DNA from: a virus
Lineage: Duplodnaviria > Caudoviricetes
IMG/VR virus record: IMGVR_UViG_3300037067_027616
Span: 224,001 to 288,000 of that record
Direction: 5' to 3' (one strand)
Length of the DNA stretch: 64,000 nt
Shown: positions 46,677 to 61,978 of the stretch, one piece after another
Layout: every line of letters begins with the position of its first letter
Position numbering within the stretch: the first letter of the stretch is position 1
Made by a program: the position numbers and the translations under genes
The notes under the pieces: model-generated
Seen by the model: only the letters and a program-made list of their open reading frames with translations
What the model was told of the DNA's origin: nothing
Databases searched by the model: none

Positions 46677-48620
46677 ATGGCTGAAGAAACACAGGGCAGG
46701 CGCTCAAGAACGCGTGTGGTGAAGACTGCCTCAAACAGAAACGTCCGGGTTACGGATTCCGAGGGCATCCAGGCGAGTTCCAAGCTCACCGACAACGAGC
46801 TGAAAGCGCGGTCTTTCCGCAAGTATGCAACGACGTCCTTCGGCTTCAACAGCCGCTCGGCGTACGATGCCTACGGCAGTGGCGGGTTTGCGATGAGCCA
46901 ATATGGAAATTTCTATTCTCCACAGCTCTCGACAGACTTCCTTGAAAAGCCCCAGAACAGACGCGAACGGCATGCGTGGTACAGACTATTCTATAACAGC
47001 AATGAATACGTAGGAGCGGCGGTTGACCTGCATAGCACGATGCCCCTTTCGAAAATACGCCTTGAGAAGCCAAAGGGGAAGAACAAGGAACAGATCGACT
47101 ACATGTATGACTTCTTCGTCGAGATGTGTGATGAGATGAAGTTGTTCAAGACGCTGATCGAGATAAGTCACGAATACCATTTGTTGGGTAATAGCTACAT
47201 GTTCGCCGAGGAACACGACCCCTACAAGTCTGATAACCCAGATTATGTGGCGGAGATGCGGGAAAAGGGTCGTTTGGAGTCGGAGAGACTCTTCAAAGAA
47301 TTTGGCGTCGTAGATCGCGACCCGAACTACAAGGGGTGGAAGCGCATCATAATTCTTCCGCCGGATCAAGTCATCGTCAAACGTCAAGTGATGTCCGATG
47401 ACTCGTACATCGAATTTATACCAGATCCCGACACACGCAAGGCAATCCTCAATTCAAGAGACGAGCCGGACATATTTCAGCAACAGGGACGCGAACCTGC
47501 TCCGCCTCCGCCGGACGTACCAGACAGCATCGCCAATGCACTCCGCGACAACGGGGCCATACCGCTCGACACTGATCCGTACAGCGGGTCGCATGTGTAC
47601 CACCTGTGTCGCAAGAAGTGCCAGTACGAAACATACGGCGTTTCTGTGCTTGAACGGTGCATCAACACGCTCCTGTTTTGGGACAAGCTCCGCCAGGCGC
47701 AGACATCCATCGCCTCCCGGCACATGACGCCATTCAGGATCGTGTGGGCCGCGAACCTCGCTGAACACGATGTCGAGGATCTTCGCGCGCAGGTAGACCT
47801 TGCATTGGTGGATCCTGACTATTCCATCATTACGAACTACGAGGTGCATTGGGATGAACAGGGTTCGAATGGACGTCTTCTGTCCCTCACCGCCGAATAC
47901 GAACAATGCGAGAATGCTTTGTTCGCAGGACTTGGTGTGACCCGCGAAATGCTGACCGGAGAATCAACATACCAGGGCAACAGGCTGACTTTGGAGATAT
48001 TGAACAAGCAGTATCTGCTATTCCGGGAGATGCTCCAGGAATACGTCGAGAATTATTTGTTCAAGCCCGTGGCGAAGAAGAAGGGCTTCGTGGAGAAGGA
48101 CAAATACGGCCGCGAACGCCTTCTTTATCCTCATTTGAGTTTCACGCGACTTGCCATCCGCGATAACGACACGTTTTTCGACCAAGCAATGCAGTTGTTC
48201 AATAAGGGTTCAGTGCCTGTCGACATCATACTCGAGATGCTTAACATCGACCCCGATTCGGCGAGAAGTAAGATTGAGGCCGACATGTTCACGAGTAACG
48301 ACCCGTCCTTCAACCAATTCATGGTCGGCTTGTATCAAGCGGCGGCCAATAAGATGGCTGAAACCCACAACGTCACCGAGCGCCTGGCTGACTACCTGTC
48401 TCTGCAGGCTGTGCCACAGCCCCCGGGCGGAGCGGAAGGTGCGCCTCCGGGTGGACCTATGGGAAGGTTCTCGAGTACGGGTTTGAGTCCTGAAAGGCAG
48501 GCCGCGCTTAATAAAATAGTACGCACCCTTGCATCCAATCCTGCCAAACTCGATGAACTGACGAAAAGAATGCAAAGGACCCAGATTAAAAAGAACAAAG
48601 GCGAAGGAAATGCTTCGTAG
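46677..48620 (+). CDS. Portal protein
   Basis: V.AAVD.....P helix, LLGNSY, YGVSVL, ALFAGLGV..EML layout typical of portals; head-module position. Confidence 0.75.
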   Translation: MAEETQGRRSRTRVVKTASNRNVRVTDSEGIQASSKLTDNELKARSFRKYATTSFGFNSRSAYDAYGSGGFAMSQYGNFYSPQLSTDFLEKPQNRRERHAWYRLFYNSNEYVGAAVDLHSTMPLSKIRLEKPKGKNKEQIDYMYDFFVEMCDEMKLFKTLIEISHEYHLLGNSYMFAEEHDPYKSDNPDYVAEMREKGRLESERLFKEFGVVDRDPNYKGWKRIIILPPDQVIVKRQVMSDDSYIEFIPDPDTRKAILNSRDEPDIFQQQGREPAPPPPDVPDSIANALRDNGAIPLDTDPYSGSHVYHLCRKKCQYETYGVSVLERCINTLLFWDKLRQAQTSIASRHMTPFRIVWAANLAEHDVEDLRAQVDLALVDPDYSIITNYEVHWDEQGSNGRLLSLTAEYEQCENALFAGLGVTREMLTGESTYQGNRLTLEILNKQYLLFREMLQEYVENYLFKPVAKKKGFVEKDKYGRERLLYPHLSFTRLAIRDNDTFFDQAMQLFNKGSVPVDIILEMLNIDPDSARSKIEADMFTSNDPSFNQFMVGLYQAAANKMAETHNVTERLADYLSLQAVPQPPGGAEGAPPGGPMGRFSSTGLSPERQAALNKIVRTLASNPAKLDELTKRMQRTQIKKNKGEGNAS

Positions 48621-48987
48621 AATCACGGACTATATACGGGTGTGCGCGGACGAGATGGAAGATGCCCCGGCGGTGGCCGACTTGAATAAGACGGACATCA
48701 ACGGTGACCCCATGGATACGGTGCCTGTGTCAGATGAAAGTACCCCCGTGGACACAAACCTGGATAACAGCGGTGATAGGGGTCCGGGGGCCCCAAGGAA
48801 GCCTGGGCTGTTTGAGGAGTCTCCGAAGCCCACGGCTGGTCCGCAGATACGGGCGCCAAGGAGGCAACACGCGCAACACCGAAAATGGAACGCCGACACG
48901 CGCCGGCAGAAGATGCGTGAGTACATGCAACAGTATAGAGGTACAGGTAAGATAAACGACCGCAAGACGCAAACGAGAGGGGCGTAA
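48610..48987 (+). CDS. Hypothetical protein
   Basis: Coupled ORF, acidic N-half and basic C-tail. Confidence 0.55.
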   Translation: MLRRITDYIRVCADEMEDAPAVADLNKTDINGDPMDTVPVSDESTPVDTNLDNSGDRGPGAPRKPGLFEESPKPTAGPQIRAPRRQHAQHRKWNADTRRQKMREYMQQYRGTGKINDRKTQTRGA

Positions 48988-48991
48988 CCAC

Positions 48992-49288
48992 ATGGCGAAA
49001 AACAAGGTACCAAGGGAACTTCTGAAACAGGTTGAGGTCATCGAGGGGGTCATCAAGGCTTTAAACGATCTCACGGACACCAATAAGGTGCAGATGATGT
49101 ATTACGGCGTGGACTTCCAAGAAGTCCTCGTGGAGATGCAGAAGGATGCCACCGTGCTCCGCGGGAAGCTTGAGATTTTCAAGAACAAGATGGAAGAGGC
49201 CGCGACCTACACTTTTTATGATAGCGCAAGGTTCGCGTCATCCGATAAGGTTGTAGACGGGTTCTTGTCTGGTCCGAACGAAGAGTAA
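48992..49288 (+). CDS. Hypothetical protein
   Basis: GAGGGG RBS. Confidence 0.6.
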   Translation: MAKNKVPRELLKQVEVIEGVIKALNDLTDTNKVQMMYYGVDFQEVLVEMQKDATVLRGKLEIFKNKMEEAATYTFYDSARFASSDKVVDGFLSGPNEE

Positions 49289-49291
49289 CGG

Positions 49292-49723
49292 ATGCCCAAT
49301 GACCTTATAAGGGTGGGGCCGCGCAAACCCGTAGGTTACATGCCTTTGAAGGAACTTGATGACCTTGACGGGGTAAGGAAAGATCTTGAATCGCGCGGCT
49401 TGTCAGTCGTAGTCATGGATGACAGGGAGTGCAACATCGAAAGCGGGGCGATGGTCGCCTATGACCGGGATGCCTTGGGAAGTTTGTTGAAGTCCCACCG
49501 ATCGATACTCGCCAAAAGTCAGTGGCCTGATGACCCTGATTCATTCATAAGGCACCACATGATCCATAACGCCCCGTTCAGGACTAAATTGTATGACCTT
49601 GTCGCCGATGCCTACGGCGATTTTGAAAATCATTTCAGGAGCAATTCGAGATCCGGTGCGAAAGTCGCTGTCAGTTGTGTGACCTTCGGCCTCCTTCATG
49701 CGTTCAAATCCCACCTTTTCTAA
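49292..49723 (+). CDS. Hypothetical protein
   Basis: 143-aa ORF in operon. Confidence 0.6.
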   Translation: MPNDLIRVGPRKPVGYMPLKELDDLDGVRKDLESRGLSVVVMDDRECNIESGAMVAYDRDALGSLLKSHRSILAKSQWPDDPDSFIRHHMIHNAPFRTKLYDLVADAYGDFENHFRSNSRSGAKVAVSCVTFGLLHAFKSHLF

Positions 49724-49735
49724 TAACGTGTTAAT
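49721..49735 (+). promoter_or_regulatory. Candidate late promoter TAATA-N5-TTAAT
   Basis: TAATAACGTGTTAAT. Confidence 0.4.
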
Positions 49736-49847
49736 ATGGATCACAAGGACGTATGGTGACCTGCGCCTTTTCGGTGCATGTGTCGAATCATGCCAATAAC
49801 GGGTCGTCCGTATCTACGGGCGCACACGTGTGCCAGAAGGAATACCT

Positions 49848-51233
49848 ATGGCTGATAAGAAGGAAGTAAAGCCCGCCGAGAAGAAATTGGGTGATGTCCT
49901 TGACAAGCACCCTACCGTGCAAAACAACGCTCGGGATCTTTTCAGGAATCAAAACGGCACGACAATCGTTCAAGAACGTGTGCCGCGTGGTGACCTCCCT
50001 CAAGATGAAGTCATCATGCCCCGCAATGAGTTCGACCTCACCGAAGACGACTTGAAGGGACTCGCGGAACACGCGAAGAAAATGATTGACCCGGTGCTTG
50101 CAAAGTACGATGAGGATGTCGCACTTGAGGATGCTTTGTCCAAAGCGGTGTGGTCAAAGGACGGAAGCAAGTACCAGAGCAGGCTCAGCGCTTGTACGCA
50201 GAAGTTGGTACTTGACATTATGAAGGGCGGCAAGGGTTCTTCGAAGAAGGCATCTGTGAGACGTACGATGCGTGAGGTTGCCGAGGAACTTGAGAAAAAA
50301 GGTTTGATTAAGGAGTACGATTATGCTCTCCCCCAACATTGGGTGGATGAGTTTGCCGGTAAGCTGAAGAAGGATAATAAAGAAAACGGTTACGATATTG
50401 TTATTGGGTCATTTATTTGGGCGTACGACAAAACGGGATCTACGGGATACCCATTTCCGGTCACTGATGAGGCTGAAACTCTTCTAGAGAAATACTACCC
50501 AAACTACTATCGGGCAGTGCAGGACGCCAAAAAGAATGCTGTGTCAACACCCAAAGCTGCAAGCATCGACTCCCTCGTGGACGCGATACCGACATCAATG
50601 GCCGACATAGAGAAGGCCAATGCACCAAAAAAAGGTAATAAACCCCCCAAGGAGGCTGGGATGGATAAGGAAATGTTGCGCAAGGAAGCTAACGACCTTG
50701 CAAAGAAGCTGGACGCTCTGAAGGTTCTTCTGGGCGAAGAAGATGAGAAGGAAGAGGCTGCGGTCGAGGATAAGGACGCCGGATCAAAAAAAGGCCCGGG
50801 TATTCCTGATGCCACCGGCCCACGTGCGGGTACTGATAAGTGTCCGAAGAGTGACAAGCCGGAAGAGGCTTCTGCATGCGGTGAAGTCGCTGATTCTTCA
50901 GTGTTGGCGAGCCTCGATGAGATCGCCGAACTTGTGGAAAAAGAAGCCCGCGAGAAGCAGGATCTCGACCTGTTCAGGATCGCCTATCAAATCGACTGCG
51001 TGTCGGACTACCTTGGTGGAAGCAAGGACGCGAGCACCCTTCAGCAGGATCCTGATGAGGATTTCATGCGGAAGGCTTTCCACTCCGGTGTGAATGAGCA
51101 TGATGCGGACGAGCCGTACATGAAGGAATTCAACAACGACAACACGAAGGAAACAAGCCGCGTGGTCGGCAACATCAGCGTGCAACACAAGAATGCTTCA
51201 ACGCTGCCGTACTCCGTGAAGAAAGACGCATAA
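49848..51233 (+). CDS. Modular probable internal head protein
   Basis: AAGGA RBS; segments bounded by KKAS, KAAS, KEAG, KDAG, KDAS, KNAS. Confidence 0.6.
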   Translation: MADKKEVKPAEKKLGDVLDKHPTVQNNARDLFRNQNGTTIVQERVPRGDLPQDEVIMPRNEFDLTEDDLKGLAEHAKKMIDPVLAKYDEDVALEDALSKAVWSKDGSKYQSRLSACTQKLVLDIMKGGKGSSKKASVRRTMREVAEELEKKGLIKEYDYALPQHWVDEFAGKLKKDNKENGYDIVIGSFIWAYDKTGSTGYPFPVTDEAETLLEKYYPNYYRAVQDAKKNAVSTPKAASIDSLVDAIPTSMADIEKANAPKKGNKPPKEAGMDKEMLRKEANDLAKKLDALKVLLGEEDEKEEAAVEDKDAGSKKGPGIPDATGPRAGTDKCPKSDKPEEASACGEVADSSVLASLDEIAELVEKEAREKQDLDLFRIAYQIDCVSDYLGGSKDASTLQQDPDEDFMRKAFHSGVNEHDADEPYMKEFNNDNTKETSRVVGNISVQHKNASTLPYSVKKDA

Positions 51234-51252
51234 CCCCAAGGGGGATCGAAAG

Positions 51253-52233
51253 ATGCCGGGACTATTCCCCAATCCGTCAGCGGCCCCTGAAGCGTTCCAG
51301 CCTGGTGATCAAGTCAGGTGGTACGTGGGAGACGCTCACATATCTCCGTACGTAGGCGTGGTCACGCAGGTTCAACCGGGAATCCAGAAGGTCGATGTCG
51401 AATTTCCGGTGGGTGGCAACCAAAGGATGTCACCAGAGGACCTCATACTCGTCACTCGTTTCGTGGGTGAGGCCCCTCTCAAAGGCGACACTGGCTATAG
51501 TAGTTATGATAAAGCCAGGTCGCTAGATGGATATGGTACATTCAAGCAGAACCTTAGGGAGATGGCAAAGGTCGTGGTTTCCAAGAAGGCCTCCCAAGAT
51601 GGAAAGCCTATGGCCACAGTCATCGCCGAGAGGTTCGCATCGGAGGTTGTCGAGGAATTGGCATCTGATGTGCTGGATTGTGCCAACAAAGGTATGACCG
51701 ATGTCACCGCGTATCAGAGGATCTACCCGAAGTATGCCTCAAAGTGTTCCGATGCATTCCTGCGAGGCGCCGTCAGAAGGGTGTACGCAGCAGGGGCGCC
51801 AAGGTGGACGGTGTCCAACACAGAACTTGACGAGTGGTCAGAACGCGACCGCAATTCGGTCATCCTCAAGGACAAGGCCTCTGGAAAATCCATCATGGAA
51901 TGGTGGGACGAGGCCGTACACGATGCGGTCGAAGATGGTTTTCTGACCATGGGCAAGGGTAAGGGTCGCCTGCATCAAGACGCTGTGGATTATGCAAACG
52001 AGCGTGGTCTCAAGCCACAGTCGTCAGACAAATGGCACAAATCATTTCAAGAGGCCGAGAAGTTACGGAGTGAAGACAAGGATGCCGCCAATCAAGGTGA
52101 TAAGAAATGCATGATTTGTGGCAAACCTGTGCTTGATAAAGATCCTGAAGTACAGTTGTGCAAGGCCTGTGGCGATGAACGCAAAGAAGAAGCGGAGAAG
52201 GGTGCTCGGCCGATAGATGAAAGAGTACCTTGA
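51253..52233 (+). CDS. Modular probable internal head protein
   Basis: SH3-like N-domain, helical middle, separate C-module, CxxC pair. Confidence 0.55.
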   Translation: MPGLFPNPSAAPEAFQPGDQVRWYVGDAHISPYVGVVTQVQPGIQKVDVEFPVGGNQRMSPEDLILVTRFVGEAPLKGDTGYSSYDKARSLDGYGTFKQNLREMAKVVVSKKASQDGKPMATVIAERFASEVVEELASDVLDCANKGMTDVTAYQRIYPKYASKCSDAFLRGAVRRVYAAGAPRWTVSNTELDEWSERDRNSVILKDKASGKSIMEWWDEAVHDAVEDGFLTMGKGKGRLHQDAVDYANERGLKPQSSDKWHKSFQEAEKLRSEDKDAANQGDKKCMICGKPVLDKDPEVQLCKACGDERKEEAEKGARPIDERVP

Positions 52234-52672
52234 TTCTTGGGGTCCCACAAGGATAATCAATATGACTGTTTACAGTAAACTATCATCGATGCTCGATTCC
52301 GTTGCTGACCGTCTTGAAGCTAAAGGTCTTGTTAAAGAAGCCACGGATATTGATGCTATCAGTAACACTATAGAAGCTGCCGTAGCTAAACAGTTGTTTG
52401 ATGAATACGGAAACTTCCATGGTAAGATCCCGAAGGAAGCCGTTAGAGATTGTTCAGGCCCAGGGCAGGCTGACGAGGCCGTGAAGCATTGGCGCAAGAA
52501 GCTGAACTTCGAAGTCCCCCGGCAGAAGGCTATCCAATATCTCAAAGAATACGGGGCATGGGACCTTGATGAACTGAATGCCTTGGATGATGAGGAACTC
52601 GCGGAAAAGGTGCTGTGGATCGCTTGTGGTGATATTAAGGAACATGGTGAGTGGTTCGGGTTGGTACACTAG
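52217..52672 (+). CDS. Helical leader motif plus small unknown domain
   Basis: LDSVADRLEAKGLVKEATDIDAI followed by a compact domain; true start may be 52262. Confidence 0.55.
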   Translation: MKEYLDSWGPTRIINMTVYSKLSSMLDSVADRLEAKGLVKEATDIDAISNTIEAAVAKQLFDEYGNFHGKIPKEAVRDCSGPGQADEAVKHWRKKLNFEVPRQKAIQYLKEYGAWDLDELNALDDEELAEKVLWIACGDIKEHGEWFGLVH

Positions 52673-52685
52673 GAGATAATGACCT

Positions 52686-54317
52686 ATGGCGATGCTCAAG
52701 TACGGACATGCCGTAGTCGCAACACCGGTGGTCGACCCCGGCAAATGGGTGGACAAGGTCACTCCGGCGGGCAGGATTAAGGTCGCCAAAAACGTCATTG
52801 CGACTTATGACCCCTCTAAGTGGTTGCTGTCCCATGTTACTATCGTGGCTTCTGTTGATACCGATTTGGCTGACTCAAAAGATCCTAAAAGCAACTACTT
52901 CATCAAGCCCGAATACAGCATCTTCGTAAACAACAATGGAGATTCGTGGGAGCGCGTTCTTTTGAAAGCGTGCTATAAAACGTTCCTTGGTGCCAACTCT
53001 TATGTCGAACACGTCCAAATTCCTGAATGCTCTAAAGGTAAAGTAATCGATATTGCTATGCGTGAAGTTCCGTTTATGAAGGGCCAAGATGGTAAAGATT
53101 TGACTACCGTCTACGTGGATATCCTCATAGCAAATAGCCGTAAGCATACGGATTTAGTTGAGAAAATAACTTCAGGTGAATATTCAGCCGTTTCCATGGG
53201 TTGCCTTATAAAATATTCCCAATGTTCTCAATGTGGTAACATCGCCGCAGACGAGTCGAAAGCCTGCAAACACGTACGGTTCTTCAAAAAGAATTTTTTC
53301 TACGACAAAAACGGCGTGCGTCGAATCATTGCCGAACTTTGTGGCCGCGCAGAGGAACCAGACAGTTGCCGATTCATCGATGCCTCTTGGGTGCGTAAAC
53401 CTGCCTTTGAGGGCGCCGTACTCCGTAATCTCATTGAGCCAAATAGTATCGATGTCGGAGACAAATTCACCAAGGCTTTCGCAGTACCTGGGTTCGTGAA
53501 GATGGACGGCATGTACTTGAAGGCCGCAGCGGTACAGGCCGCCAATGACCTTGTCAACGAGATACAGGCCGCAGACGAGCCTGCGCCGAAGGCAGATACC
53601 CCGCCTCCGCCGCCCCCTGCGGAAGAAGCGCCTCCTGCTGATGATTCGAGGTTCCCTGAAGCCCCTGCAGGAACCGAGGAGCCACCTGCGGAAGCGCCCG
53701 CCGGCGGTGGTGGTGCTGATTTGGGTCTTGGAGGCGGCGGAGGAGGTGCTCCTGCAGAAGGTGCACCGGATCAGCCCGCGCAAATGCAGGTGGAGGAGCC
53801 TATACAGGACGCTACGGTGAAGGAAGTTAAGGACATGCTCAAGAAGCTTGTCCTCAATGATTTGCGCCGTGAGTTGCTCAAGGGCAGTGCGTCAGTGGCT
53901 ACGCCGCCTGAGGAGCGTCCCACAGAGGCGGAGAATGCAAGCCAGACGAGCCTTGTTAAAGATGCCTCTTTTAGTCGTATGGTGAAGATGGCTTCCAAGG
54001 AAGTTGGCGATCGGTTGGCGAACGGGTTGTTGATTCTTTCGAACTTGAATGATTGGGGCCGGATGCGCCGATACGGTTACAATAGAGATGACGTGTTGGG
54101 CATCTTATGGTATATGGACAGGAAGTCTTCGAGTTCACCAGTAGGACCGGATGCGGTCAAGGCGTTGAGCAAGGTGCGCTTGGCATCTGATGGAGATGCC
54201 CGCCGTTTCTTCACCGAGATGATCGTGGAGATCGGCCGTAAGCCGTCCGTGGTGGAGTCGAGGAAACTCCTAAAATGGGCGGGCATACTTAACCGTGTCA
54301 GCAGGGTTGCCAGATGA
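52686..54317 (+). CDS. Prohead maturation protease (HK97-like) with Pro-rich linker and C-domain
   Basis: NNNGD, VEH, SAVSMGC, FIDASWVRKPAF; upstream of scaffold and capsid genes. Confidence 0.7.
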   Translation: MAMLKYGHAVVATPVVDPGKWVDKVTPAGRIKVAKNVIATYDPSKWLLSHVTIVASVDTDLADSKDPKSNYFIKPEYSIFVNNNGDSWERVLLKACYKTFLGANSYVEHVQIPECSKGKVIDIAMREVPFMKGQDGKDLTTVYVDILIANSRKHTDLVEKITSGEYSAVSMGCLIKYSQCSQCGNIAADESKACKHVRFFKKNFFYDKNGVRRIIAELCGRAEEPDSCRFIDASWVRKPAFEGAVLRNLIEPNSIDVGDKFTKAFAVPGFVKMDGMYLKAAAVQAANDLVNEIQAADEPAPKADTPPPPPPAEEAPPADDSRFPEAPAGTEEPPAEAPAGGGGADLGLGGGGGGAPAEGAPDQPAQMQVEEPIQDATVKEVKDMLKKLVLNDLRRELLKGSASVATPPEERPTEAENASQTSLVKDASFSRMVKMASKEVGDRLANGLLILSNLNDWGRMRRYGYNRDDVLGILWYMDRKSSSSPVGPDAVKALSKVRLASDGDARRFFTEMIVEIGRKPSVVESRKLLKWAGILNRVSRVAR

Positions 54318-54357
54318 TAATCCGTCCACCGTTGGAAGGATTCAGGGGATCGATTCG

Positions 54358-54372
54358 TAATACTCTATTAAT
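54358..54372 (+). promoter_or_regulatory. Candidate late promoter TAATA-N5-TTAAT
   Basis: TAATACTCTATTAAT upstream of the scaffold/capsid operon. Confidence 0.5.
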
Positions 54373-54448
54373 ACCTGAAATTTGTTGATAATACACATGT
54401 GCGGCTCTCCTTGTGGGAGTGCCGAAACAGGTCTCTAAGGAGGAGAAC

Positions 54449-55582
54449 ATGAGGCAGCGACTCACTACCCGCACCGCCGAGGATCTCACGGTAAAGTCCA
54501 AGGGCGACGTGAAGGAGAGCAAGGGTTCGGGGATCGACAACGACGTGTACGATCAGAACGACACCGGTCATGAGAAGAACGACCCGGATCGTGGCGAGTA
54601 CGCGAAAGGTGATCCTTCAGCATGGGCCGAGGATGTTCATACGAAGCCCGTCAACAAGGATGACAAGAACCGCGAAGAGACAGGGCATGCCCCGCTCGTC
54701 GACAAGCATGCAGCCGCCGAAGCAATCGCGACTGTGCGCAAACTTGAAGAGAAGGCCGCTCGTTGCATCGTGGCCGCTCAGCGGACACTGCCTGGCGCCG
54801 ACCGTGATATGGTCGAGGCACAGGCCGCATCGTTCATGCACATGCCCGACAGCGAACTGAATGCGACCCTCTCGCGCCAGGAAAAGCTGGCCAAGATGAT
54901 CGCCGGTGCCGCTGAAGAAGTTACGAAGGAAACCGAGGAAAAGACCGCTGAAGAAGTGAAGACCCCGGAAGCATCGAATGCCCCCGAAGCCGTGAAGGCC
55001 CCGGAAGCATCGAAAGAAGAGGAAGCTGGCAAGAAGGGCGAAATTCCTCCGCAGTTCCTGAAGGGTAAGAAGGAAGATAAGAAGGAAGATGAAGATCTTC
55101 CCGCATTCCTGCAGAAGAAACTCGCATCCATCGAAGCTGAACTCGCAACATTGAAGGAAGCCACAAAGAAGGGCGTGAGTTCCATCAACACGAACAAGTC
55201 CGAGATGAACATATCCAACGCGTCCGATGAGGGTGCGAAGGAAGAGGCTCCGAAGGCCGAGGAAGCACCGAAGGAAGAGAAGGCTGAGGAACCGAAGGAA
55301 GATAAGAAGGAAGATAAGAAGGAAGAGAAGAAGGAAGATAAGGAAGAGAAGAAGGATGATGACAGCGATGAAATCACCTTCGGCGATGAAGAGGAAGGCA
55401 AGGATGCTTCCGATGACTCTCTGCTCAACCAGATATTCAGCACGGTGACCGCGTCGGCCGATAAAAAGGGCGCCGCGACACTGTCTGGCTTGGTGAAGAA
55501 GCAGGCGAGTTCCGGAACTACCGATCTCGACTCGATTCTGATGGACGGGACGCCTCCGAGCGTCAACCATCTCTTCCAGTAA
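54449..55582 (+). CDS. Probable capsid scaffold protein
   Basis: AAGGAGG RBS; E/K/A low complexity; between protease and capsid genes. Confidence 0.6.
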   Translation: MRQRLTTRTAEDLTVKSKGDVKESKGSGIDNDVYDQNDTGHEKNDPDRGEYAKGDPSAWAEDVHTKPVNKDDKNREETGHAPLVDKHAAAEAIATVRKLEEKAARCIVAAQRTLPGADRDMVEAQAASFMHMPDSELNATLSRQEKLAKMIAGAAEEVTKETEEKTAEEVKTPEASNAPEAVKAPEASKEEEAGKKGEIPPQFLKGKKEDKKEDEDLPAFLQKKLASIEAELATLKEATKKGVSSINTNKSEMNISNASDEGAKEEAPKAEEAPKEEKAEEPKEDKKEDKKEEKKEDKEEKKDDDSDEITFGDEEEGKDASDDSLLNQIFSTVTASADKKGAATLSGLVKKQASSGTTDLDSILMDGTPPSVNHLFQ

Positions 55583-55594
55583 GAGGATTTTTCC

Positions 55595-55622
55595 GCCACC
55601 TGCGGCCGATCCCGCAGGTGGC
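55595..55622 (+). other. 11-bp GC-rich hairpin without U-tract (stabiliser or processing site)
   Basis: GCCACCTGCGG-CCGATC-CCGCAGGTGGC. Confidence 0.6.
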
Positions 55623-55624
55623 AT

Positions 55625-55683
55625 AGTAGTAAACAGTACCCGCCCCATGTGGGGATTGGGTGAACAACAGGAGGAAGAACATG
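55625..55683 (+). promoter_or_regulatory. Conserved leader, copy 1
   Basis: AGTAGTAAAC..CCCGCCCC-ATGT-GGGGATTGGGT..AACAGGAGGAAGAACATG. Confidence 0.75.
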
Positions 55684-56196
55684 ATCGGTGAAGGCAGTGG
55701 AATAGTTCCTGACAGGGGCATGAACTACCTCGCAAGAGGTACGCTCAACACGCTGATGAATCTGACGGAAGCGGATCTGACGCAGGACAACGATGCTCTC
55801 ACGACATCGACCCGCGTCGGTGCGGACACCCCGAAGGGCCTGCTCGCAGGTTCAGTTGTGGCAGTCGGCGCCAGTGGAACCGTAGAGCATGCTGCTGCGG
55901 CGTCCACGGATGTGGTTGGTATCGTGGTGAACAATGCGGTTGGTTATCCGTACGAGTCGTCATCGGGCGTCGGAAGCGGCAAGTGTGTGTATCTGCACGG
56001 TGCCAGTTCTGTGTTCACGACCGACCTGTATGAAACCGCAGGTCTCGCAGGCGGCGCGTGGGCGGCAGGTAACTTGGTGTACTCATCGGCTGGTGGATTT
56101 TTGACGAACGTTGATGGTGGTGGAACAGTAATCGGCGTGGTGCTTATCGCCCCGTCGGCAACGGATCCGTTCATGGCCGTCCAGATGAGGATCTAA
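55681..56196 (+). CDS. Capsid decoration/cement protein
   Basis: Small Gly/Ala-rich beta protein just upstream of the MCP; strong RBS. Confidence 0.65.
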   Translation: MIGEGSGIVPDRGMNYLARGTLNTLMNLTEADLTQDNDALTTSTRVGADTPKGLLAGSVVAVGASGTVEHAAAASTDVVGIVVNNAVGYPYESSSGVGSGKCVYLHGASSVFTTDLYETAGLAGGAWAAGNLVYSSAGGFLTNVDGGGTVIGVVLIAPSATDPFMAVQMRI

Positions 56197-56273
56197 GTAG
56201 TAAACGCGGTAAACTATCCCGCCCCGTGTTGGGGATTGGGTAACGGTGAAAGGAAACAGGAGGAAGAAACATG
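56196..56273 (+). promoter_or_regulatory. Conserved leader, copy 2
   Basis: AGTAGTAAAC..CCCGCCCC-GTGTT-GGGGATTGGGT..AACAGGAGGAAGAAACATG. Confidence 0.75.
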
Positions 56274-57152
56274 CCCGACACAATCAGCAATGAAGTCAAG
56301 CAGCAGATCATCAGTGACTATCTGAAGACGGCTTCTGGCCGTATGAAGGTAGCTGCCTCGATGATTCAACCTCTCCGCTTGAGGAGAGATTACACGTCGG
56401 TCGCCAGGAAAGCTTTCCTGGTTGAGCAGCTCCCGGATGGCGCTCTCCCGATCTACGACAAGGATCCGAACATCACGGCGTTCGTGGTTGGCGAGGAAGG
56501 CCAGAATATCCTTGCAGTCGCGAAGTCCCGCAGGGTCACGTTCCCGCTGTTCGAACTCGCTTCCAACCCTGAGGTCCCGCTGACTCAGGTCAAAGAGCGT
56601 CGGTTCGACATCATCGAGCGCGTTCAGGATCTGGGCAAAGTCCAGATTCAGGCCGCTGAGGATGGAAGAGTGTTTGACGTGATGGATGCGGTCGCGGCCA
56701 ATGGCTTCGACAACTTGGACGCTGCTTATACCAACGCCCAGGTCAACGCTGTGGCACCGCTCATTCCCAGCAACCTCATCGACGCCTTCGCGCGCATCGA
56801 AACGCACGACCTCAGGGTCGCCCGCGTCTTCATGAACGCCCTGGATTTCGCCGACCTGAGGAAGTGGGGACGTGACGTTCTCGACCTCGAGAGCCAGGCA
56901 ACGCTGCTCAAGAGTGGGATGCTTGCCACTCTGTGGGGCGCCCAGGTCATCGTGTCGAGGAAGGTTGCTAAAGGTTACGTGTACGTGTGCGCAGAGCCGG
57001 AGTTCTTCGGACGTATTCCCGTTCGCACTGAGCTCACGGTCCTGTCAGCAGACGACCCGAAGGCTCGCAGGATTGGATTCTCAATCTTCGAGAACCTCGG
57101 AATCGGTTGCTACAACCCGCTGGCGCTGTGCCGTGTGAGAATCGCCCGCTAA
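56271..57152 (+). CDS. Major capsid protein, short HK97/encapsulin-like fold
   Basis: 293 aa; spine helix IQAAED, VFMN..DF.DL, LWGAQVIVS, FENLGI; strong RBS, biased codons, followed by a terminator. Confidence 0.8.
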   Translation: MPDTISNEVKQQIISDYLKTASGRMKVAASMIQPLRLRRDYTSVARKAFLVEQLPDGALPIYDKDPNITAFVVGEEGQNILAVAKSRRVTFPLFELASNPEVPLTQVKERRFDIIERVQDLGKVQIQAAEDGRVFDVMDAVAANGFDNLDAAYTNAQVNAVAPLIPSNLIDAFARIETHDLRVARVFMNALDFADLRKWGRDVLDLESQATLLKSGMLATLWGAQVIVSRKVAKGYVYVCAEPEFFGRIPVRTELTVLSADDPKARRIGFSIFENLGIGCYNPLALCRVRIAR

Positions 57153-57170
57153 TCCGGGTATCTCTTAGAG

Positions 57171-57202
57171 AGGCGGGGGAGGAATCCCCCGCTTTTCTTT
57201 TT
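57171..57202 (+). terminator. Intrinsic terminator after MCP
   Basis: GCGGGGGA-GGAA-TCCCCCGC then TTTTCTTTTT. Confidence 0.85.
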
Positions 57203-57313
57203 CCCAAAATTTTAATAACAACGTCTACTTTGCGTATATTTTATGTCAAGGTTTTTGAAGTCGACCCCTTTAAGGAGTTGATGGTGAAAATCTTGAAATA
57301 TTTTTAAATTTTA

Positions 57314-57328
57314 TAATACTCCGTTAAT
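57314..57328 (+). promoter_or_regulatory. Candidate late promoter TAATA-N5-TTAAT
   Basis: TAATACTCCGTTAAT. Confidence 0.5.
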
Positions 57329-57366
57329 CGTCCTCCTTCAGTGAAGCATCGAAGGAGACATTTGTT

Positions 57367-57597
57367 ATGGCCAACGAGAACATAGGACAGAAGGGCATCG
57401 AGAACAGCACACCTGGAAGATTCGGGCTGTACACGCAGCACGATGTGGACATGGGTAACTCGGATGGGGACACCGTCGACAGTACCTATTCCAGGAACTC
57501 TGTGAAGGAAATCAGCTTCCAGAGGACTCGCAACCTTCAGGGTACCGGGACGACTTTCTACTACCCGCTCGGCAACAGTTCGCGTCAAGAGTATTGA
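57367..57597 (+). CDS. Small hypothetical protein
   Basis: AAGGAG RBS; own promoter motif and terminator. Confidence 0.65.
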   Translation: MANENIGQKGIENSTPGRFGLYTQHDVDMGNSDGDTVDSTYSRNSVKEISFQRTRNLQGTGTTFYYPLGNSSRQEY

Positions 57598-57633
57598 TAG
57601 GCGCGTGTTTATTCACTGCCGGGCACGAATCAT

Positions 57634-57664
57634 GAAAGGCGACCTTTTGGTCGCCTTTCCTTTT
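57634..57664 (+). terminator. Intrinsic terminator
   Basis: GAAAGGCGACC-TTTT-GGTCGCCTTTC then CTTTT. Confidence 0.75.
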
Positions 57665-57716
57665 GATACTCTTCTCATTTTGAAATATATACGGATTATA
57701 TGCCGTTGGAGGCCAT

Positions 57717-58415
57717 GTGCTGACTGTCAAGATCGCGCGTAAATTGCGTCGCCTCGCCGAGGAGATGCTGTCTTCATTGGACAGCGAGGCCATGGTCAAG
57801 GGTCTTAAGTCTGATTACGGCATAGACATACCGCCCGATACCGACCCTGAGAATTTGAAAACTCTGTGTGACAGTTTGAAGAGGATCCCTGCCAGTCTTG
57901 TCAGGGACTGTGGCATAAATTTGATGAAGTTTGACGACATGGGTCCTTCCCGGGAGTACTACCCGAACCACGGCATTTACAGTAACGGCACCCTCACTTT
58001 GAACGAGAACATCATCGAGGATCCGACACTCGAATATGACCCCGAGAGCGGCATGAGGCTCAACAAATTTGACCAGACATTTTACCACGAACTCGGTCAC
58101 GGTTGGGACGAGGCGCATGGGCAGGATAATGTTGAACTCAGTCTGAAGCCTGATTGGCTCGGATTATCTGGTTGGTCGAAGGATCCGCAGGAAGGGTTGA
58201 AGAAGCTTGTCATTCAGGAACCCGGCGCTCCTAAAATGGTTGGTGAGTGGTGGTACAAGCCGGACTCTGGTTTCACGAGGTTTTACGCCCGCAGGAACCC
58301 GTTGGACGATTGGGCAGATTCCTTTTCGTACTACGTGGGCGGGCTCAAATCGTTCCTTCCAGAGTCGAAGATAAAATATTTCGATGGAAGGATCGGCAAG
58401 CATTTCTCGAGTTGA
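57717..58415 (+). CDS. Zincin-like metallopeptidase
   Basis: FYHELGHGWD and YARRNPLDDWADSFSYY (usually E.FAE). Confidence 0.65.
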   Translation: MLTVKIARKLRRLAEEMLSSLDSEAMVKGLKSDYGIDIPPDTDPENLKTLCDSLKRIPASLVRDCGINLMKFDDMGPSREYYPNHGIYSNGTLTLNENIIEDPTLEYDPESGMRLNKFDQTFYHELGHGWDEAHGQDNVELSLKPDWLGLSGWSKDPQEGLKKLVIQEPGAPKMVGEWWYKPDSGFTRFYARRNPLDDWADSFSYYVGGLKSFLPESKIKYFDGRIGKHFSS

Positions 58416-58433
58416 CAACATACGGGAGTAGAT

Positions 58434-59960
58434 ATGCCTACAACGAATGCATCGGTCATGGATAAGTCATCTGGTAAGCGTTTGCACAGCACCCCGGGAT
58501 ATGCCCCAGGGCATGCGGGCGACCCGCAGTATGCGGTACCGATAGCATACAGGGTTATTTTTCCCGAGGATTTTTACGCGATCCAGTTGCTCGATGGTCG
58601 TGATGTTGTGGATGATTCATTTCCTGAAATAAAGAACATCAAAGAGATTTTTGATTTCATGGATGAGGACGGGATAGATGATAAGGATTCCAAAGAATTC
58701 TTGTCCAAGTTTGTTTTTCCTACGATAAAACTTTCTGACGTTTCAAATAAGGTGCCTGCAGGCGGTGATCCGAACATCGAACTTGCTCTCGTAGATAAAG
58801 AAGGCAAGCCGTTGATCCGGCGCAAAGTGTCAGAGTTCTTGTCCGACCCAGACTTGACGGCTTGGGTGAAGGCATCCGTGGCGGAACATTTCAAAAAGTA
58901 TATCAACGATGAGTCAAATTGGAAGATACGCGATCATGAAGAAAATCTTCCTGACCCGGACTACAGGTCGGCCGCTTCTTTGAAGACAGCATCTGAGGTG
59001 GTGCCTACTCTTGAGGCCTTGATGGAAAAGCTTGAGAAGCTTGGCATGGAGAAGCAGGCATCAACCATCAAGGGCGTTATCGCGATGTTCCCGCAAATTG
59101 ACTTGCGTGAACGCAGGATGCATTCCCAGGGTAGGAAAGCTCCTGGCGAAACGTACAGTTTTGACCCATCGAAGCCCATGTTGCAGGAGGGTGACCAATA
59201 CACGGAGATAAATCCGCAAACAGGTGGTGAGTTCGAAAAGCGGTACAAGATGGATAAACCGCTCGGTGTTCACCAATTGGAGCCTTATTTTAGTAAGGGT
59301 ATGTTCGAGGTTGATTGGCTTAAAGGGGAGGTCGGCAAGGAGAAGGATCCCGCCAAAAAGGCCGTTTTGAATCGTCTTCTCGACAAGGCTGTGGCGCAAG
59401 AGTCAGCTATGCGTGGCAAGCAGGCATCTCAGAAGGCGTCTGGTGATCATTGGTTGTCAAAGCCCATAGAGTTGCACATACCCCCGCGTAAGGATCCCAC
59501 GGAGATATTCCTCATGGAGGCTCTCAAAACAGCCCCTGAAGTTGAAAAGGGTTTGATTGCCAATCTGTTGGACAAATACCGTGAAAGTCGCGCGCCTGCC
59601 CGATCTATGGTGTACAAGTGTGCCAGCACGCTCCGGTCTAAAGGTTACGATGCGCTCGCTGAAAGGCTCGAGTTGAAGGTAGCCACAGGCATATGGAAGA
59701 TTGGCGATCCCGTAGTCATCCGCAGCATGGCGGAACACATGGCTGATTTGAAGGTGGAAAGCGTAGACAAGAATGTCAGTTTGTATGATGCTATGTTCGA
59801 CCTTTACATACGGACATTGGAGGAGGCCGCCGCAGTGGTGAAAACGGCCAAAGTCGATGCCCACAAGTTGAAGGACATCGAAGAGGCTTTAAAGGTGGTT
59901 GTCAAGGCTGATCAGCTTATGATGCAGAAGCTGATGCAGATAGCAAATAAGGGGGTATAG
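58434..59960 (+). CDS. Modular probable internal head protein
   Basis: Segments bounded by KTAS, KQAS, QKAS, KCAS, KVAT; two helical leader-like motifs. Confidence 0.55.
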   Translation: MPTTNASVMDKSSGKRLHSTPGYAPGHAGDPQYAVPIAYRVIFPEDFYAIQLLDGRDVVDDSFPEIKNIKEIFDFMDEDGIDDKDSKEFLSKFVFPTIKLSDVSNKVPAGGDPNIELALVDKEGKPLIRRKVSEFLSDPDLTAWVKASVAEHFKKYINDESNWKIRDHEENLPDPDYRSAASLKTASEVVPTLEALMEKLEKLGMEKQASTIKGVIAMFPQIDLRERRMHSQGRKAPGETYSFDPSKPMLQEGDQYTEINPQTGGEFEKRYKMDKPLGVHQLEPYFSKGMFEVDWLKGEVGKEKDPAKKAVLNRLLDKAVAQESAMRGKQASQKASGDHWLSKPIELHIPPRKDPTEIFLMEALKTAPEVEKGLIANLLDKYRESRAPARSMVYKCASTLRSKGYDALAERLELKVATGIWKIGDPVVIRSMAEHMADLKVESVDKNVSLYDAMFDLYIRTLEEAAAVVKTAKVDAHKLKDIEEALKVVVKADQLMMQKLMQIANKGV

Positions 59961-59961
59961 G

Positions 59962-60381
59962 ATGTCTATTAATTTCCTGCAGGGCACGCGCGGTGGTAAG
60001 ATCAGCATGATGCGGGTGGCCACGATGATGGTGGTCACGTCCATTATGGGTGTGTGGGTGGCCCACAACATAGTAGCTATGTTCGTGGGTTGCAGTTTCA
60101 TCAGCATGGGCCAAACAGAGATGATGCTTGTCGCTCTTACCCTCGGTGCAAAGGCTGCGCAGTTGTTCGGAGAGGTGCGTGGGAACGGAAAAGATCGTGG
60201 AAGTCATGAGGATTACTCTGATAATAGTCATAGCCCTGAGGGTAGCCAAGATGATAGCCACGGGGATAGTCGTGAGGATAGCAGAGATGATGATAGTCGT
60301 GGTCGTATCCGTGACCGCAGTCATGATCATAGTTATGATCCCCCGACCACGAATGACATTCCGGTGGACAAGACGCAATAG
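59962..60381 (+). CDS. Two-TM membrane protein (holin-like) with D/S/H/R-rich tail
   Basis: ISMMRV followed by two hydrophobic segments and GAKAAQ. Confidence 0.5.
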   Translation: MSINFLQGTRGGKISMMRVATMMVVTSIMGVWVAHNIVAMFVGCSFISMGQTEMMLVALTLGAKAAQLFGEVRGNGKDRGSHEDYSDNSHSPEGSQDDSHGDSREDSRDDDSRGRIRDRSHDHSYDPPTTNDIPVDKTQ

Positions 60382-60387
60382 GAGGGT

Positions 60388-61017
60388 GTGATGCCTAATC
60401 CTAAGAATTACAAGGATAAGCAGGTCTGGATGGGAGATTGTATGCACCAGACCAAAAAGGTCGAGGGTAAGCCTCAGGATCAAAGTGTAGCTATTTGTTT
60501 GAATAAATGGAGGAACAAGGATAAGAAGAAAAAAGTGAAAAAGACTGCAGGAGAGGTCATCAGGTGCATCGCGGCAGCTCTTTATCCACCCCCTCCAGGC
60601 ACCCCTGCGGCAGTCCCTGGACAGGACTCTGTTCAGGAAATGGGTAAAAACTATTCACCACACCATTATATTGTAAGTAAGACGTATGAGGTGGTGACCC
60701 CCGAGTCGGAGGAGGAGGGGGATGCCGATGATCGTGGTTTTGAGTACGAGAATGAAAAGTATGACACTCTTCGTGATTTGGTGAGTGATTCTGCCAACCG
60801 AGAAAATTGGGTAGAGTGGTCCTCGACGCATTTGTCTGGTGATCATGAATGGCTTACCTCCGAGGGTGAAAAGGATATACAAACCGGGGAGTACACGAGT
60901 TACGGACTACATATCAAACGGTCAGACGGAAAGCCCCTTTCCAAACGTGAGGTTGATACGATAAGCAAGGCTTTTAGGGTAACAGGATACAAATATATCG
61001 GATCGAGGCAGGAATAG
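60388..61017 (+). CDS. Modular hypothetical protein
   Basis: Short CM...Q.VAIC..KW module, KKTAG linker, separate acidic C-domain. Confidence 0.55.
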   Translation: MMPNPKNYKDKQVWMGDCMHQTKKVEGKPQDQSVAICLNKWRNKDKKKKVKKTAGEVIRCIAAALYPPPPGTPAAVPGQDSVQEMGKNYSPHHYIVSKTYEVVTPESEEEGDADDRGFEYENEKYDTLRDLVSDSANRENWVEWSSTHLSGDHEWLTSEGEKDIQTGEYTSYGLHIKRSDGKPLSKREVDTISKAFRVTGYKYIGSRQE

Positions 61018-61018
61018 C

Positions 61019-61978
61019 ATGCCCTCATTTTCGGACAAAATACCTGTGGAGCGTAGTTCCGTGGAAGCTGTCATACTCAAGATAGCTTCTGTTTTGAAGG
61101 CACGCACCGAGGAAGCAAAGAAATCTGGCAAGCCCTCCGTTTTCCTTGGCGGGGATTGCTCTGATGACAATGCGTGGCGTAAGGACATCGTGAAGGAGTT
61201 CGGGGACAAACTTGCTTTCATCGACCCATATGATGAAAAATGGGAAGCCGAGGATAACATCTACGATGAACTCGCCGCCTTGGTAGGCGTGGATCATGTC
61301 GTTTTTTACAAGGGTGGAGATGGTACCAAGAAGGAGAAGGCGTTCCTTGAAGAGGTGGGTGACCGCGACAGTTACGAATCGTTTGACGACCTTGGTGAAC
61401 TCCGCACATACCTCGGGAATCTCTCCAAACCTGTCACGACAAAGACGGCAAATTCTGAAGGGGTGTACAATCATTCAACCACTCAGATAGATCTTCCCGA
61501 TGACCTCAGGGATGAGGTCATCAAGTGGGGTAAGGAAAAAATAGCGGACAAGGATCTCGTTCAGGACGAGAAGAATAGCATGGGGCGTGAGGATGAGATA
61601 CACGCCACGGTGCTTTACGGCCTAAAGGACGAAACGCCGGAGTCTTTCAAGAAGGTGGTTGAGGCGGTCGCTCCGTTCGAGGCAAGGCTCGGGTTGGTTA
61701 CCTTGTTCAAGGACAATAAGGAACACGATGTGGTTAAGATAGATATCGAGGCCCCGGAACTTCACAGGCTCCACTATGAGATAGCCGAGGCCGCGCCGTG
61801 CGAGAATTCGTTTCCGACCTATGTGCCGCATGTTACGATCGCATATGTGCGTAAAGGCGCCGGCGATAAGGTGCTGGGGTCGGATGTGTTTCGGGGGAGG
61901 ACATTTAAAGTCGACTCCCTCACGTTCAAGGATTCTGAAAAGAAAAAGATGAAAATACCCCTCAAGGGGAAATCCTGA
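61019..61978 (+). CDS. Nucleoside 2-deoxyribosyltransferase-like domain fused to 2H phosphoesterase (T4 57B/Acb1-like)
   Basis: SVFLGG...WR...FIDP N-domain; HATV and HVTI 2H motifs. Confidence 0.75.
   Translation: MPSFSDKIPVERSSVEAVILKIASVLKARTEEAKKSGKPSVFLGGDCSDDNAWRKDIVKEFGDKLAFIDPYDEKWEAEDNIYDELAALVGVDHVVFYKGGDGTKKEKAFLEEVGDRDSYESFDDLGELRTYLGNLSKPVTTKTANSEGVYNHSTTQIDLPDDLRDEVIKWGKEKIADKDLVQDEKNSMGREDEIHATVLYGLKDETPESFKKVVEAVAPFEARLGLVTLFKDNKEHDVVKIDIEAPELHRLHYEIAEAAPCENSFPTYVPHVTIAYVRKGAGDKVLGSDVFRGRTFKVDSLTFKDSEKKKMKIPLKGKS

Follow-up and report, generated by a model that had tools for sequence, protein, structure and literature searches.

Proteolytic maturation of viral heads is, to our knowledge, understood in detail only for a few phage lineages (T4, phiKZ-like and HK97-like phages) and for the herpesviruses. 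The head protease gp21 of phage T4 recognizes the motif [L/I]-x-E. The protease gp245 of phage SPN3US follows the P3-x-P1 code A-x-E, cutting after Glu with Ser favored at P1'; giant-phage proteases remove N-terminal propeptides of 20-254 residues, cut several times, and trim their own C-terminal part (PMC10052503). Herpesvirus assemblin cuts after Ala, both at a release site (R-site; YLQA-T in pseudorabies virus), where the protease is freed from the scaffold part, and at a maturation site (M-site; VQA-S), where C-terminal capsid-protein-binding residues are removed (PMC4498786). Here we analyze the head-assembly genes of a phage G-like virus, IMG/VR record IMGVR_UViG_3300037067_027616 (466,729 bp), within the 64,000-nucleotide stretch formed by bases 224,001-288,000 of that record (hereafter the window; genes without a name are designated by their first position in it). 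The proteins of this region carry many copies of a short motif, [K/R]-x-A-[S/A/G], which is likely to be the recognition code of an assemblin-fold prohead protease encoded at 52686-54317 (+ strand) and which, judging from the sequences, would direct processing of the protease itself, the scaffold, the capsid protein, the portal, and several internal proteins, some of them gene fusions.

The head-assembly region occupies the + strand of the window from 30.7 to 64 kb. The motif had been picked post hoc from the sequence in an earlier model-made reading of the window (hereafter the original prediction), and therefore we ran a blind scan of every three-residue pattern in six spacings (~48,000 patterns). 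The top-ranked pattern in the head module was K.AS, with 18 occurrences against 2.29 expected (Poisson p 5e-11); the runners-up were proline runs. When shuffling was confined to blocks of 10 to 50 residues, ~2.3-2.4 K.AS sites were expected against 19 observed, and each of 17 other arrangements of K, A, and S occurred 0-6 times. The broader pattern [KR]xA[SAG] was found 34 times in the head module against 12.6 expected from per-protein shuffles (z 6.5). By the same measure, the enrichment anticipated by the original prediction for the proteins of 30-64 kb relative to those of 1-30 kb was borne out after correction for composition, with 64 sites against 25.3 expected in the former and 13 against 16.4, i.e., no excess, in the latter. 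A position scan of the extended head region, where K.AS occurs 27 times against 3.5 expected, delineated the preferences at each position: Lys (7.7-fold) or Arg (3.9-fold) at P3, any residue at P2, Ala alone at P1, and Ser (7.7-fold), Thr (3-fold) or, more weakly, Gly and Ala at P1'. The T4-type [LIV]xE and phiKZ-type [SAG]xE motifs showed no enrichment in the head module. Head proteins show a specific excess of the motif [K/R]-x-A-[S>T,G,A], a selected signal tied to them, and the pattern is stronger and extends further than the original prediction had it. The sites listed in the original prediction are all present, namely KTAS (amino acid (aa) 16) in the portal, KTAS and KVAA (aa 19 and 26) in the capsid protein, KAAA, KDAS, and KMAS (aa 279, 425, and 434) in the protease, KDAS and KQAS (aa 330 and 363) in the scaffold-like protein, KKAS and KAAS (aa 139 and 242) in 49848, KTAS, KQAS, and KVAT in 58434, KTAG in 60388, and KTAN in 61019; the scaffold RTAE and the 51253 RRVYAAG exist as well, but lie outside the motif.

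In the genome as a whole, K.AS occurs 103 times against 43 expected and is concentrated at genome positions 240-300 kb (window 16-76 kb; 34 against 7.8). The three most site-dense proteins of the entire genome, those of 58434, 49830 (the 49848 protein), and 32080, are all encoded within the window. Genome-wide, K.AS also peaks at residues 15-25 of the open reading frames (ORFs), with 14 sites or 2.45 per 1000 residues against 0.35-0.8 elsewhere (~3-6 times); this peak rests on crude gene calls (longest ORFs), so that some N-termini may be wrong. The portal, the capsid protein, and the 61019 ORF are among its carriers, and the peak suggests N-terminal propeptides of ~20 aa. Two proteins of the head region are devoid of the motif. 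The head decoration/cement protein (55660-56196, + strand; weak PF09956 and phrog_122 matches) served as a negative control and has 0 sites, likewise 0 in 38/38 orthologs. The 1332-aa protein encoded at 36858-40856, which adjoins the terminase gene and has no Pfam or PHROG match, contains 0 [KR]xA[SAGT] sites against 2.4 expected, suggesting that, unlike its site-rich neighbors, it would not be a substrate of the protease.

A megablast search with the head module as query gave zero matches among 50,697 phage records, and phage G and Tunturi_5 surfaced at the protein level alone. In protein searches, the major capsid protein (56271-57152, + strand; HK97 fold family, PF05065; phrog_2522, E 1e-51) shares 39% identity with gp27 of Bacillus phage G (498 kb; Donellivirus gee) and 47% with gp334 of Tunturiibacter phage Tunturi_5 (309 kb). 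Orthology across the three phages, in which the gene order is identical, extends to the protease and the portal (46677-48620, + strand; phrog_16240, E 2e-32; 28% identity to the phage G portal gp14). Relatives of the capsid protein were found on at least 247 stretches in IMG/VR, and 80 loci with 65-94% capsid identity were kept, several of them from contigs of 300-512 kb. These relatives, phage G, and Tunturi_5 share the order portal, 49848, 51253, 52217, protease, scaffold-like gene, decoration gene, and capsid gene, with the decoration gene upstream of the capsid gene throughout; the genes downstream of the capsid gene show no conservation in the relatives.

The motif is enriched in these genomes as well. 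The + strand ORFs in the head-module flanks of the relatives contain 205 K.AS sites against 66 expected, single loci reaching p ~1e-6 and others showing little excess. A whole-genome scan of phage G revealed one hot spot, located in the first 20 kb, where the head genes lie (28 sites against 8.0 expected), and 149 sites against 136 expected in the remaining 477 kb. The same scan of Tunturi_5 gave three hot-spot bins, i.e., the head module (37 against 15.5), genes lying directly upstream of the large terminase (TerL) gene on the circular map (28 against 9.6), and the region of 220-240 kb (30 against 15.7). In one stretch of this genome the head proteins have 27 sites against ~7.4 expected, whereas ~6,500 residues of sheath, fiber, and other tail proteins from the same stretch have 4 against ~9. 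No sequence similarity between phages was detectable among the site-rich proteins of the window phage, phage G, and Tunturi_5; across the three phages the motif persists, while the protein does not. In those papers on phage G and the Tunturi phages that were consulted, we found no description of a K-x-A-S code.

The 52686 gene is located in the head module, in the interval between the portal and major capsid genes, and adjoins the scaffold-like gene. Its identification as the head maturation protease in the original prediction agrees with a match to phrog_18299 (E 3e-14), a family shared with gp19 of phage G, and with the predicted structure. The AlphaFold model (21 orthologs) comprises a confident core at aa ~40-240/250 with a predicted local distance difference test (pLDDT) score of ~80, a disordered P/A/E-rich linker at ~300-375, a segment with pLDDT<50 at 402-436, and a confident helical C-terminal domain at 438-540. 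The best real Foldseek matches were herpesvirus proteases, with weak E-values. In VIA-align, the top 13 matches were all herpesvirus assemblins (Z 8.0-5.1, root-mean-square deviation (rmsd) 2.5-3.3, 110-123 residues aligned), among them those of varicella-zoster virus (Z 8.0, rmsd 2.5 over 111 residues), pseudorabies virus (Z 7.8), and human cytomegalovirus, herpes simplex virus, and Kaposi's sarcoma-associated herpesvirus (Z 5-7), with unrelated folds trailing at Z 5.0 or less. Pfam provided no protease-family match for the window protease or its 21 orthologs, only weak zinc-ribbon matches; sequence and profile searches against PDB returned low-complexity noise only, and no S77, S78 (PF03420, PF04586), or ClpP protease was found elsewhere in the genome. 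Residues H50, H109, H154, S170 (in LSMGC), and H196 and a Cys cluster are invariant in the 21 orthologs, and a Cys-rich zinc-ribbon-like insert lies within the protease domain after the candidate catalytic Ser. As judged from the model, the gene encodes a head protease with an assemblin-like fold that represents a distinct sequence family and is predicted to work like the S21/S77/S78/S80-type enzymes.

In three relatives, the protease gene is interrupted by an intein of ~400 aa (Hom_end_hint/Hint/Intein_splicing and a LAGLIDADG endonuclease), at L003:5092-7986, L008:5585-8347 (the same gene as L007:5696-8458), and L036:4990-7911; the window protease is intein-free. The insertion point adjoins the invariant E108-H109 pair (window numbering). 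Since inteins favor active-site positions, this location would fit such a position. The 920-973-aa 'long proteases' of relatives had been considered as protease-scaffold fusions, which was rejected, as their length is due to the intein insertions.

Two sites within the protease stand out. K279-A-A-A (53520..53531, + strand), at the end of the protease domain, is a candidate release (R-like) autoprocessing site: its K/R and A-A are invariant in 27/27 orthologs, and the linker that follows is hypervariable and P/A/E-rich. The proteases of Tunturi_5 and phage G have KVAS at the equivalent place. The second conserved site, K425-D-A-S (53958..53969, + strand), falls in the segment of pLDDT<50 just before the C-terminal domain; it belongs to a conserved N-x-L-[IV]-[KR]-x-A at aa 422-427, with K/R in 20/27 orthologs. 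Altogether, three of the five protease sites are in predicted linkers of the model.

The scaffold-like protein (54413-55582, + strand) was assigned from its E/K-rich composition and its position between the protease and the decoration and capsid genes, and has no Pfam or PHROG family match. It contains 6 sites against 2.3 expected, and its orthologs have 1-8 sites each. A candidate maturation (M-like) site, K363-Q-A-S (55499..55510, + strand), is situated 24 aa from the C-terminus, ahead of the conserved tail L..LW...PPDVS..F. Lys or Arg is retained at this site in 12/13 orthologs, Ala in 12/13, and Ser in 13/13, and gp332 of Tunturi_5 has KVAS 16 aa from its C-terminus. In the capsid protein, KTAS (aa 19-22; nucleotides 56325-56336, + strand) and KVAA (aa 26-29; nucleotides 56346-56357, + strand) are located near the N-terminus; K26-x-A-A is invariant in 46/46 orthologs, and K19 (K19-T-A-[S/A/G]) is present in 43/46. 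The P1' Ser alternates with Ala or Gly at orthologous capsid sites, and many residues occupy this position at the invariant protease site. The portal has an N-terminal KTAS at aa 16-19, kept in the closest relatives only, and RQAA at aa 607 near the C-terminus, whereas the phage G portal has KQAA at 18, KMAS at 55, and KIAS at 625. By analogy with described systems, the near-invariant sites appear to be located where such proteases are known to cut, i.e., at the end of the protease domain, in the C-terminal tail of the scaffold, and at the N-terminus of the capsid protein. From the alignments, only a subset of the sites seems clearly constrained, and many sit in fast-evolving linkers and apparently turn over.

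Shortly beyond the end of the window, 13 kb downstream of the real capsid gene, a 155-aa ORF (genome 293855-294322, window coordinates 69855-70322) represents a fragment or a paralog of the capsid protein; it shares 37% identity with residues 172-252 of the Tunturi_5 capsid protein and 30% with the capsid protein of phage G.

The following maturation pathway may be envisaged. After prohead assembly, the protease would free itself at K279-A-A and cut again at K425-D-A-S, clip off the last 24 residues of the scaffold, i.e., the conserved and probably capsid-protein-binding tail, and remove ~21-28 N-terminal residues from the capsid protein and ~18 from the portal. The candidate internal or core proteins 32080, 49848, 51253, and 58434 would be chopped at linker sites, the pieces either leaving the head or staying in it as small internal proteins, and gene-fusion substrates with sites at their joints would act as small polyproteins. 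The scissile bond is placed after Ala because herpesvirus assemblin cuts x-A|S at similarly arranged release and maturation sites.

The resemblance to herpesvirus assemblin (UL26/UL26.5; MEROPS S21) extends to the succession of protease domain, release-type site, linker, and C-terminal domain, to a scaffold site tens of residues from the C-terminus ahead of a conserved tail, and to a predicted cleavage motif in which Ala occupies P1 and Ser occupies P1'. The two systems differ in that P3 is Lys/Arg in the window phage and hydrophobic in assemblin, and in that the window protease and scaffold are encoded by separate rather than nested in-frame genes; furthermore, the window protease has the Cys-rich zinc-ribbon-like insert and no detectable sequence similarity to assemblin. 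With T4 gp21 and phiKZ gp175/SPN3US gp245 the locus would share the principle of one head protease acting on many head proteins at a three-residue motif with Ser favored at P1', of short (20-24 aa) as well as long N-terminal propeptides that are cut repeatedly, and of a protease trimming its own C-terminal part, such processing being predicted in our case. Those enzymes, however, cut after Glu, whereas the head module of the window shows no excess of Glu-type motifs, and the window protease belongs to a different sequence family with no S77 match. The proteases of phage G and Tunturi_5, in turn, differ from the window protease in being without the long linker and the C-terminal domain.

The remaining site-rich proteins of the window have no Pfam or PHROG enzyme domain (32080, 49848, 51253, and 58434, as well as the scaffold-like protein 54413). 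Each of them is enriched in sites, as are unrelated proteins of phage G and Tunturi_5. The most site-dense protein of the genome, a 661-aa protein of no known family (32080..34065, + strand), was outside the coordinates covered by the original prediction; it is a candidate internal core or scaffold-like protein with 14 [KR]xA[SAGT] sites against 3.2 expected (p 7e-6) and 5 K.AS against 0.67. Its gene lies just upstream of the TerL gene (34884-36845, + strand; phrog_2), and genes upstream of TerL are site-rich in Tunturi_5 also. The 508-aa accessory protein 58434 (58434..59960, + strand) likewise belongs to no family, and the ESM Atlas contained no usable neighbor. It has 6 sites against 1.6 expected and 4 K.AS against 0.30. 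Its N-domain (aa 1-186) is bounded by RSAA/KTAS and followed by a hairpin-like helix ending in K-Q-A-S; 5/5 homologs retain K(Q/Y)AS at aa 207, and two short homologs begin right after the RSAA/KTAS pair. The protein has four homologs, and its location next to the capsid gene is not conserved in the relatives. The 326-aa head-module protein 51253 (51253..52233, + strand), of which the core at aa 1-180 is common to the relatives, contains 4 sites against 1.2 expected, including a partly conserved KYAS at 160. Its C-terminal extension, found in the window and L003 only, starts at a non-canonical VYAAG, the point where most of the 14 aligned orthologs end.

The modular organization is most evident in the 461-aa protein encoded at 49848..51233 (+ strand), where the ATG at 49848 is probably the true start of the 49830/49848 ORF. 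The protein consists of an N-domain, a site, an inserted module, a site, a K/E-rich linker, and a C-domain containing a helical hairpin and, after it, two conserved sites. In L008, L012, L013, and L015 the N-domain (176-205 aa) and the C-domain (106-110 aa) each have a gene of their own, and in the window, L003, L005, L006, and L020 the two are fused. Three sites of this family, i.e., after the N-domain, after the C-domain hairpin, and ~10 aa from the C-terminus, are conserved even in the split genes; the first reads K-x-A-[SAG] in 9/13 sequences, and the site at aa 399 is present in 11/12. The inserted module (~100 aa; 50256..50565, + strand) is specific to the window, absent from the closest relative L003, and bounded exactly by KKAS (aa 139) and KAAS (aa 242). 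The original prediction was right that the DNA between these sites is AT-richer near 50270-50560, with a GC content of 0.44-0.46, the flanks having 0.51-0.57. All six sites are placed by the AlphaFold model in or at the edge of linkers with pLDDT<50; as 39% of the residues belong to such linkers, this would happen by chance with a probability of ~0.003 if the composition bias of linkers is ignored. A Foldseek search of the model against viral structures gave nothing meaningful. Comparison with the relatives shows that the protein joins separable modules, with sites where they meet, as in a viral polyprotein; its cleavage is predicted.

The expectation that sites would fall at domain borders thus holds for the 49848 joints and the end of the 58434 N-domain, but not for 61019 and 51253, where the KTAN and YAAG joints are non-canonical. 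Overlaying the sites on the AlphaFold models agreed with it fully in 49848 and for three of the five protease sites, but not for the two at aa 498 and 530 of the protease. As to exchange of domains between relatives, the 49848 genes are fused in some genomes and split in others, and the insert that L003 lacks was the only clear module insertion found.

Next to the site-rich genes, the window encodes several enzyme-like ORFs. The two accessory ORFs at 60388..61978 (+ strand; 209 and 319 aa) had been claimed as payloads. The 60388 ORF has one site (KTAG) against 0.38 expected and the 61019 ORF two against 0.82, neither being enriched. The latter (61019-61978) combines a nucleoside 2-deoxyribosyltransferase-like domain at aa 38-100 (PF15891, below the Pfam cut-off) with a 2H phosphoesterase/Acb1-like domain at aa 190-281 (PF13563, E 7e-9; PF23474, E 1e-7). 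It has KIAS at aa 21 near the N-terminus and the non-canonical KTAN in the inter-domain linker, and no relatives of this enzyme fusion were found in viral contigs. The 232-aa ORF at 57717-58415 has a HELGH (HExxH) metallopeptidase-like motif, a very weak Peptidase_M91 match (E 0.059), and 0 K-x-A-S sites, and is found beside the capsid gene in one relative only.

A helical hairpin element of ~35 aa, approximately LD.IA..LE..G(L/M).KEA..LDV(V/I)SNT(I/L)E, recurs in at least 14 ORFs of the genome that have no other relationship to one another. The hairpin pattern has 19 genomic matches against 1.7 in shuffles and often carries K-x-A. It is N-terminal in some ORFs and internal or C-terminal in others, and one copy precedes a DUF3228 domain. 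Copies in the window are located at 52217-52672 (aa 19-60), 50256-50330, and 59000-59070, and other copies at genome positions 164119, 188726-193688, 210476, 296818, 299636, and 305981. The 49848 insert opens with a degenerate copy, its first 22 aa weakly matching nine paralogous elements. Similarity also extends to the helical hairpin in orthologs of the 49848 C-domain, which carry a divergent form; the strict pattern has no copy in the flanks of the relatives. The element may be a prohead-targeting module.

Several explanations other than recognition by the prohead protease were weighed. Head proteins are rich in K, A, E, and S, and the repeated LDKIAS element supplies part of the genome-wide excess, so low-complexity composition dominated by K, A, and S, or else paralogous sequence, might be thought to generate the pattern. 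This account retains a negligible probability and is refuted by the blind scan, by the block shuffles, which even with blocks of 10 residues predict ~2.4 sites against 19, with 0-6 for permuted patterns, and by the recurrence of the excess in independent genomes of differing base composition; in addition, the head proteins that carry the sites are mutually unrelated. Alternatively, the motif could be real and non-proteolytic, serving as a docking or assembly motif (for scaffold, portal, or chaperone) or as a sequon for Ser modification (phosphorylation, glycosylation). Such roles would suit the sites found in conserved helices (aa 127 and 160 of 51253, and those inside the hairpin element), but the placement of the motif mirrors the release and maturation sites of assemblin, and the sites favor disordered linkers. 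Moreover, Ser gives way to Ala or Gly at orthologous sites, and many other residues take its place at the invariant protease site; modification of Ser therefore cannot be the common function. We consider a non-proteolytic role improbable.

The original prediction went further and had the protease release exchangeable effector domains, bounded by the sites, for packaging and injection. In its full form, with targeting of these modules to the prohead and their delivery together with the DNA, this reading would parallel T4 internal proteins (IPs) and Alt, phiKZ/SPN3US ejection proteins, and P1 Dar. Like T4 IPs/Alt (capsid-targeting sequence) and P1 Dar, the locus presents N-terminal peptides ending in the protease motif and a candidate shared targeting element, namely the hairpin with its frequent N-terminal position and K-x-A; the genome-wide K.AS peak at residues 15-25 and the modular fusions with sites at their joints point in the same direction. 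So do an aldo-keto reductase/kinase fusion encoded elsewhere in the genome with KKAS at its domain joint, one of the hints, too small in number for a statistical comparison, that the motif may mark joints in proteins outside the head module, and gp350 of Tunturi_5, labeled by its depositors as DarB-like antirestriction, which has 10 sites against 3.3 expected and lies in a hot spot. The DarB-like label is, however, unsupported by Pfam, which found no domain in gp350, gp348, gp345, or gp328 of Tunturi_5. Nor was a payload enzyme identified: the site-rich proteins of the window, in this respect unlike T4 IPs/Alt and P1 Dar, contain no recognizable enzyme domain by Pfam or PHROG. The enzyme-like ORFs 57717, 60388, and 61019 show no excess of sites, and the 61019 joint is non-canonical. 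The 49848 modules are conserved head-module proteins with conserved sites inside the ~105-aa C-domain. Cuts there would destroy this domain instead of releasing it, which is what one would expect of core or scaffold proteins to be cleared from the head, and a degraded protein of this kind fits better than a released effector. Release of effector domains is thus unsupported at present and unlikely as the explanation of the motif. We regard as equally doubtful its extension to a modular cargo system of G-like megaphages, in which the hairpin LD.IA..LE..G..KEA..LD..SNT.E would recruit proteins to the prohead and the assemblin-like protease, with an x-A|S specificity resembling that of herpesviruses, would free them at K-x-A-S joints. 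If such a system did exist, the head would deliver a changeable set of proteins together with the DNA, possibly including anti-defense factors of the kind suggested by the label of the Tunturi_5 protein.

Several points weigh against recognition of the motif by the prohead protease, which we nonetheless prefer. The protease resembles assemblins only modestly in structure (Z 8 over ~110-120 residues), and therefore the fold assignment leans also on the phrog_18299 match; no sequence profile ties the enzyme to S21, S77, or S78, its catalytic triad has no assignment, and H196 is possibly a zinc ligand. Sites 498 and 530 of the protease are inside its confidently folded domain. As a group, the sites are not better conserved per column than other K/R (means 0.47 against 0.54) or Ala (0.48 against 0.43) residues. 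The rest of the genome has 69 K.AS sites against 35 expected, a roughly two-fold excess beyond the head region for which the paralogous element reading LDKIAS accounts only in part. The capsid protein of phage G and gp21 of the same phage, which occupies the scaffold position, have no canonical site. Finally, the case for cleavage is built on sequence throughout.

The predicted cleavage code would hold for the phage G-like megaphages (genomes of 300-500 kb), a widespread lineage distinct from those known in detail, and it can be checked, as two members are cultivated and mass-spectrometry data exist for the phage G virion. It would help to map the mature protein ends for cryo-electron microscopy models and to look for packaged proteins, and could flag genes for head-internal proteins among those of uncultivated megaphages. 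If correct, an Ala|Ser-type site that follows the logic of release and maturation sites would also complement the structural relationship of phage and herpesvirus proteases with a functional one.

Two enzyme genes outside the window also carry the motif. In the reductase/kinase fusion (genome 162634-164094), KKAS (aa 315) coincides exactly with the junction between the aldo-keto reductase and an AAA_33/polynucleotide-kinase-like domain, and KIAA is found at aa 12. The other gene (genome 161084-162628) encodes a 5'-deoxyribonucleotidase-like protein in which K.AS occurs twice.

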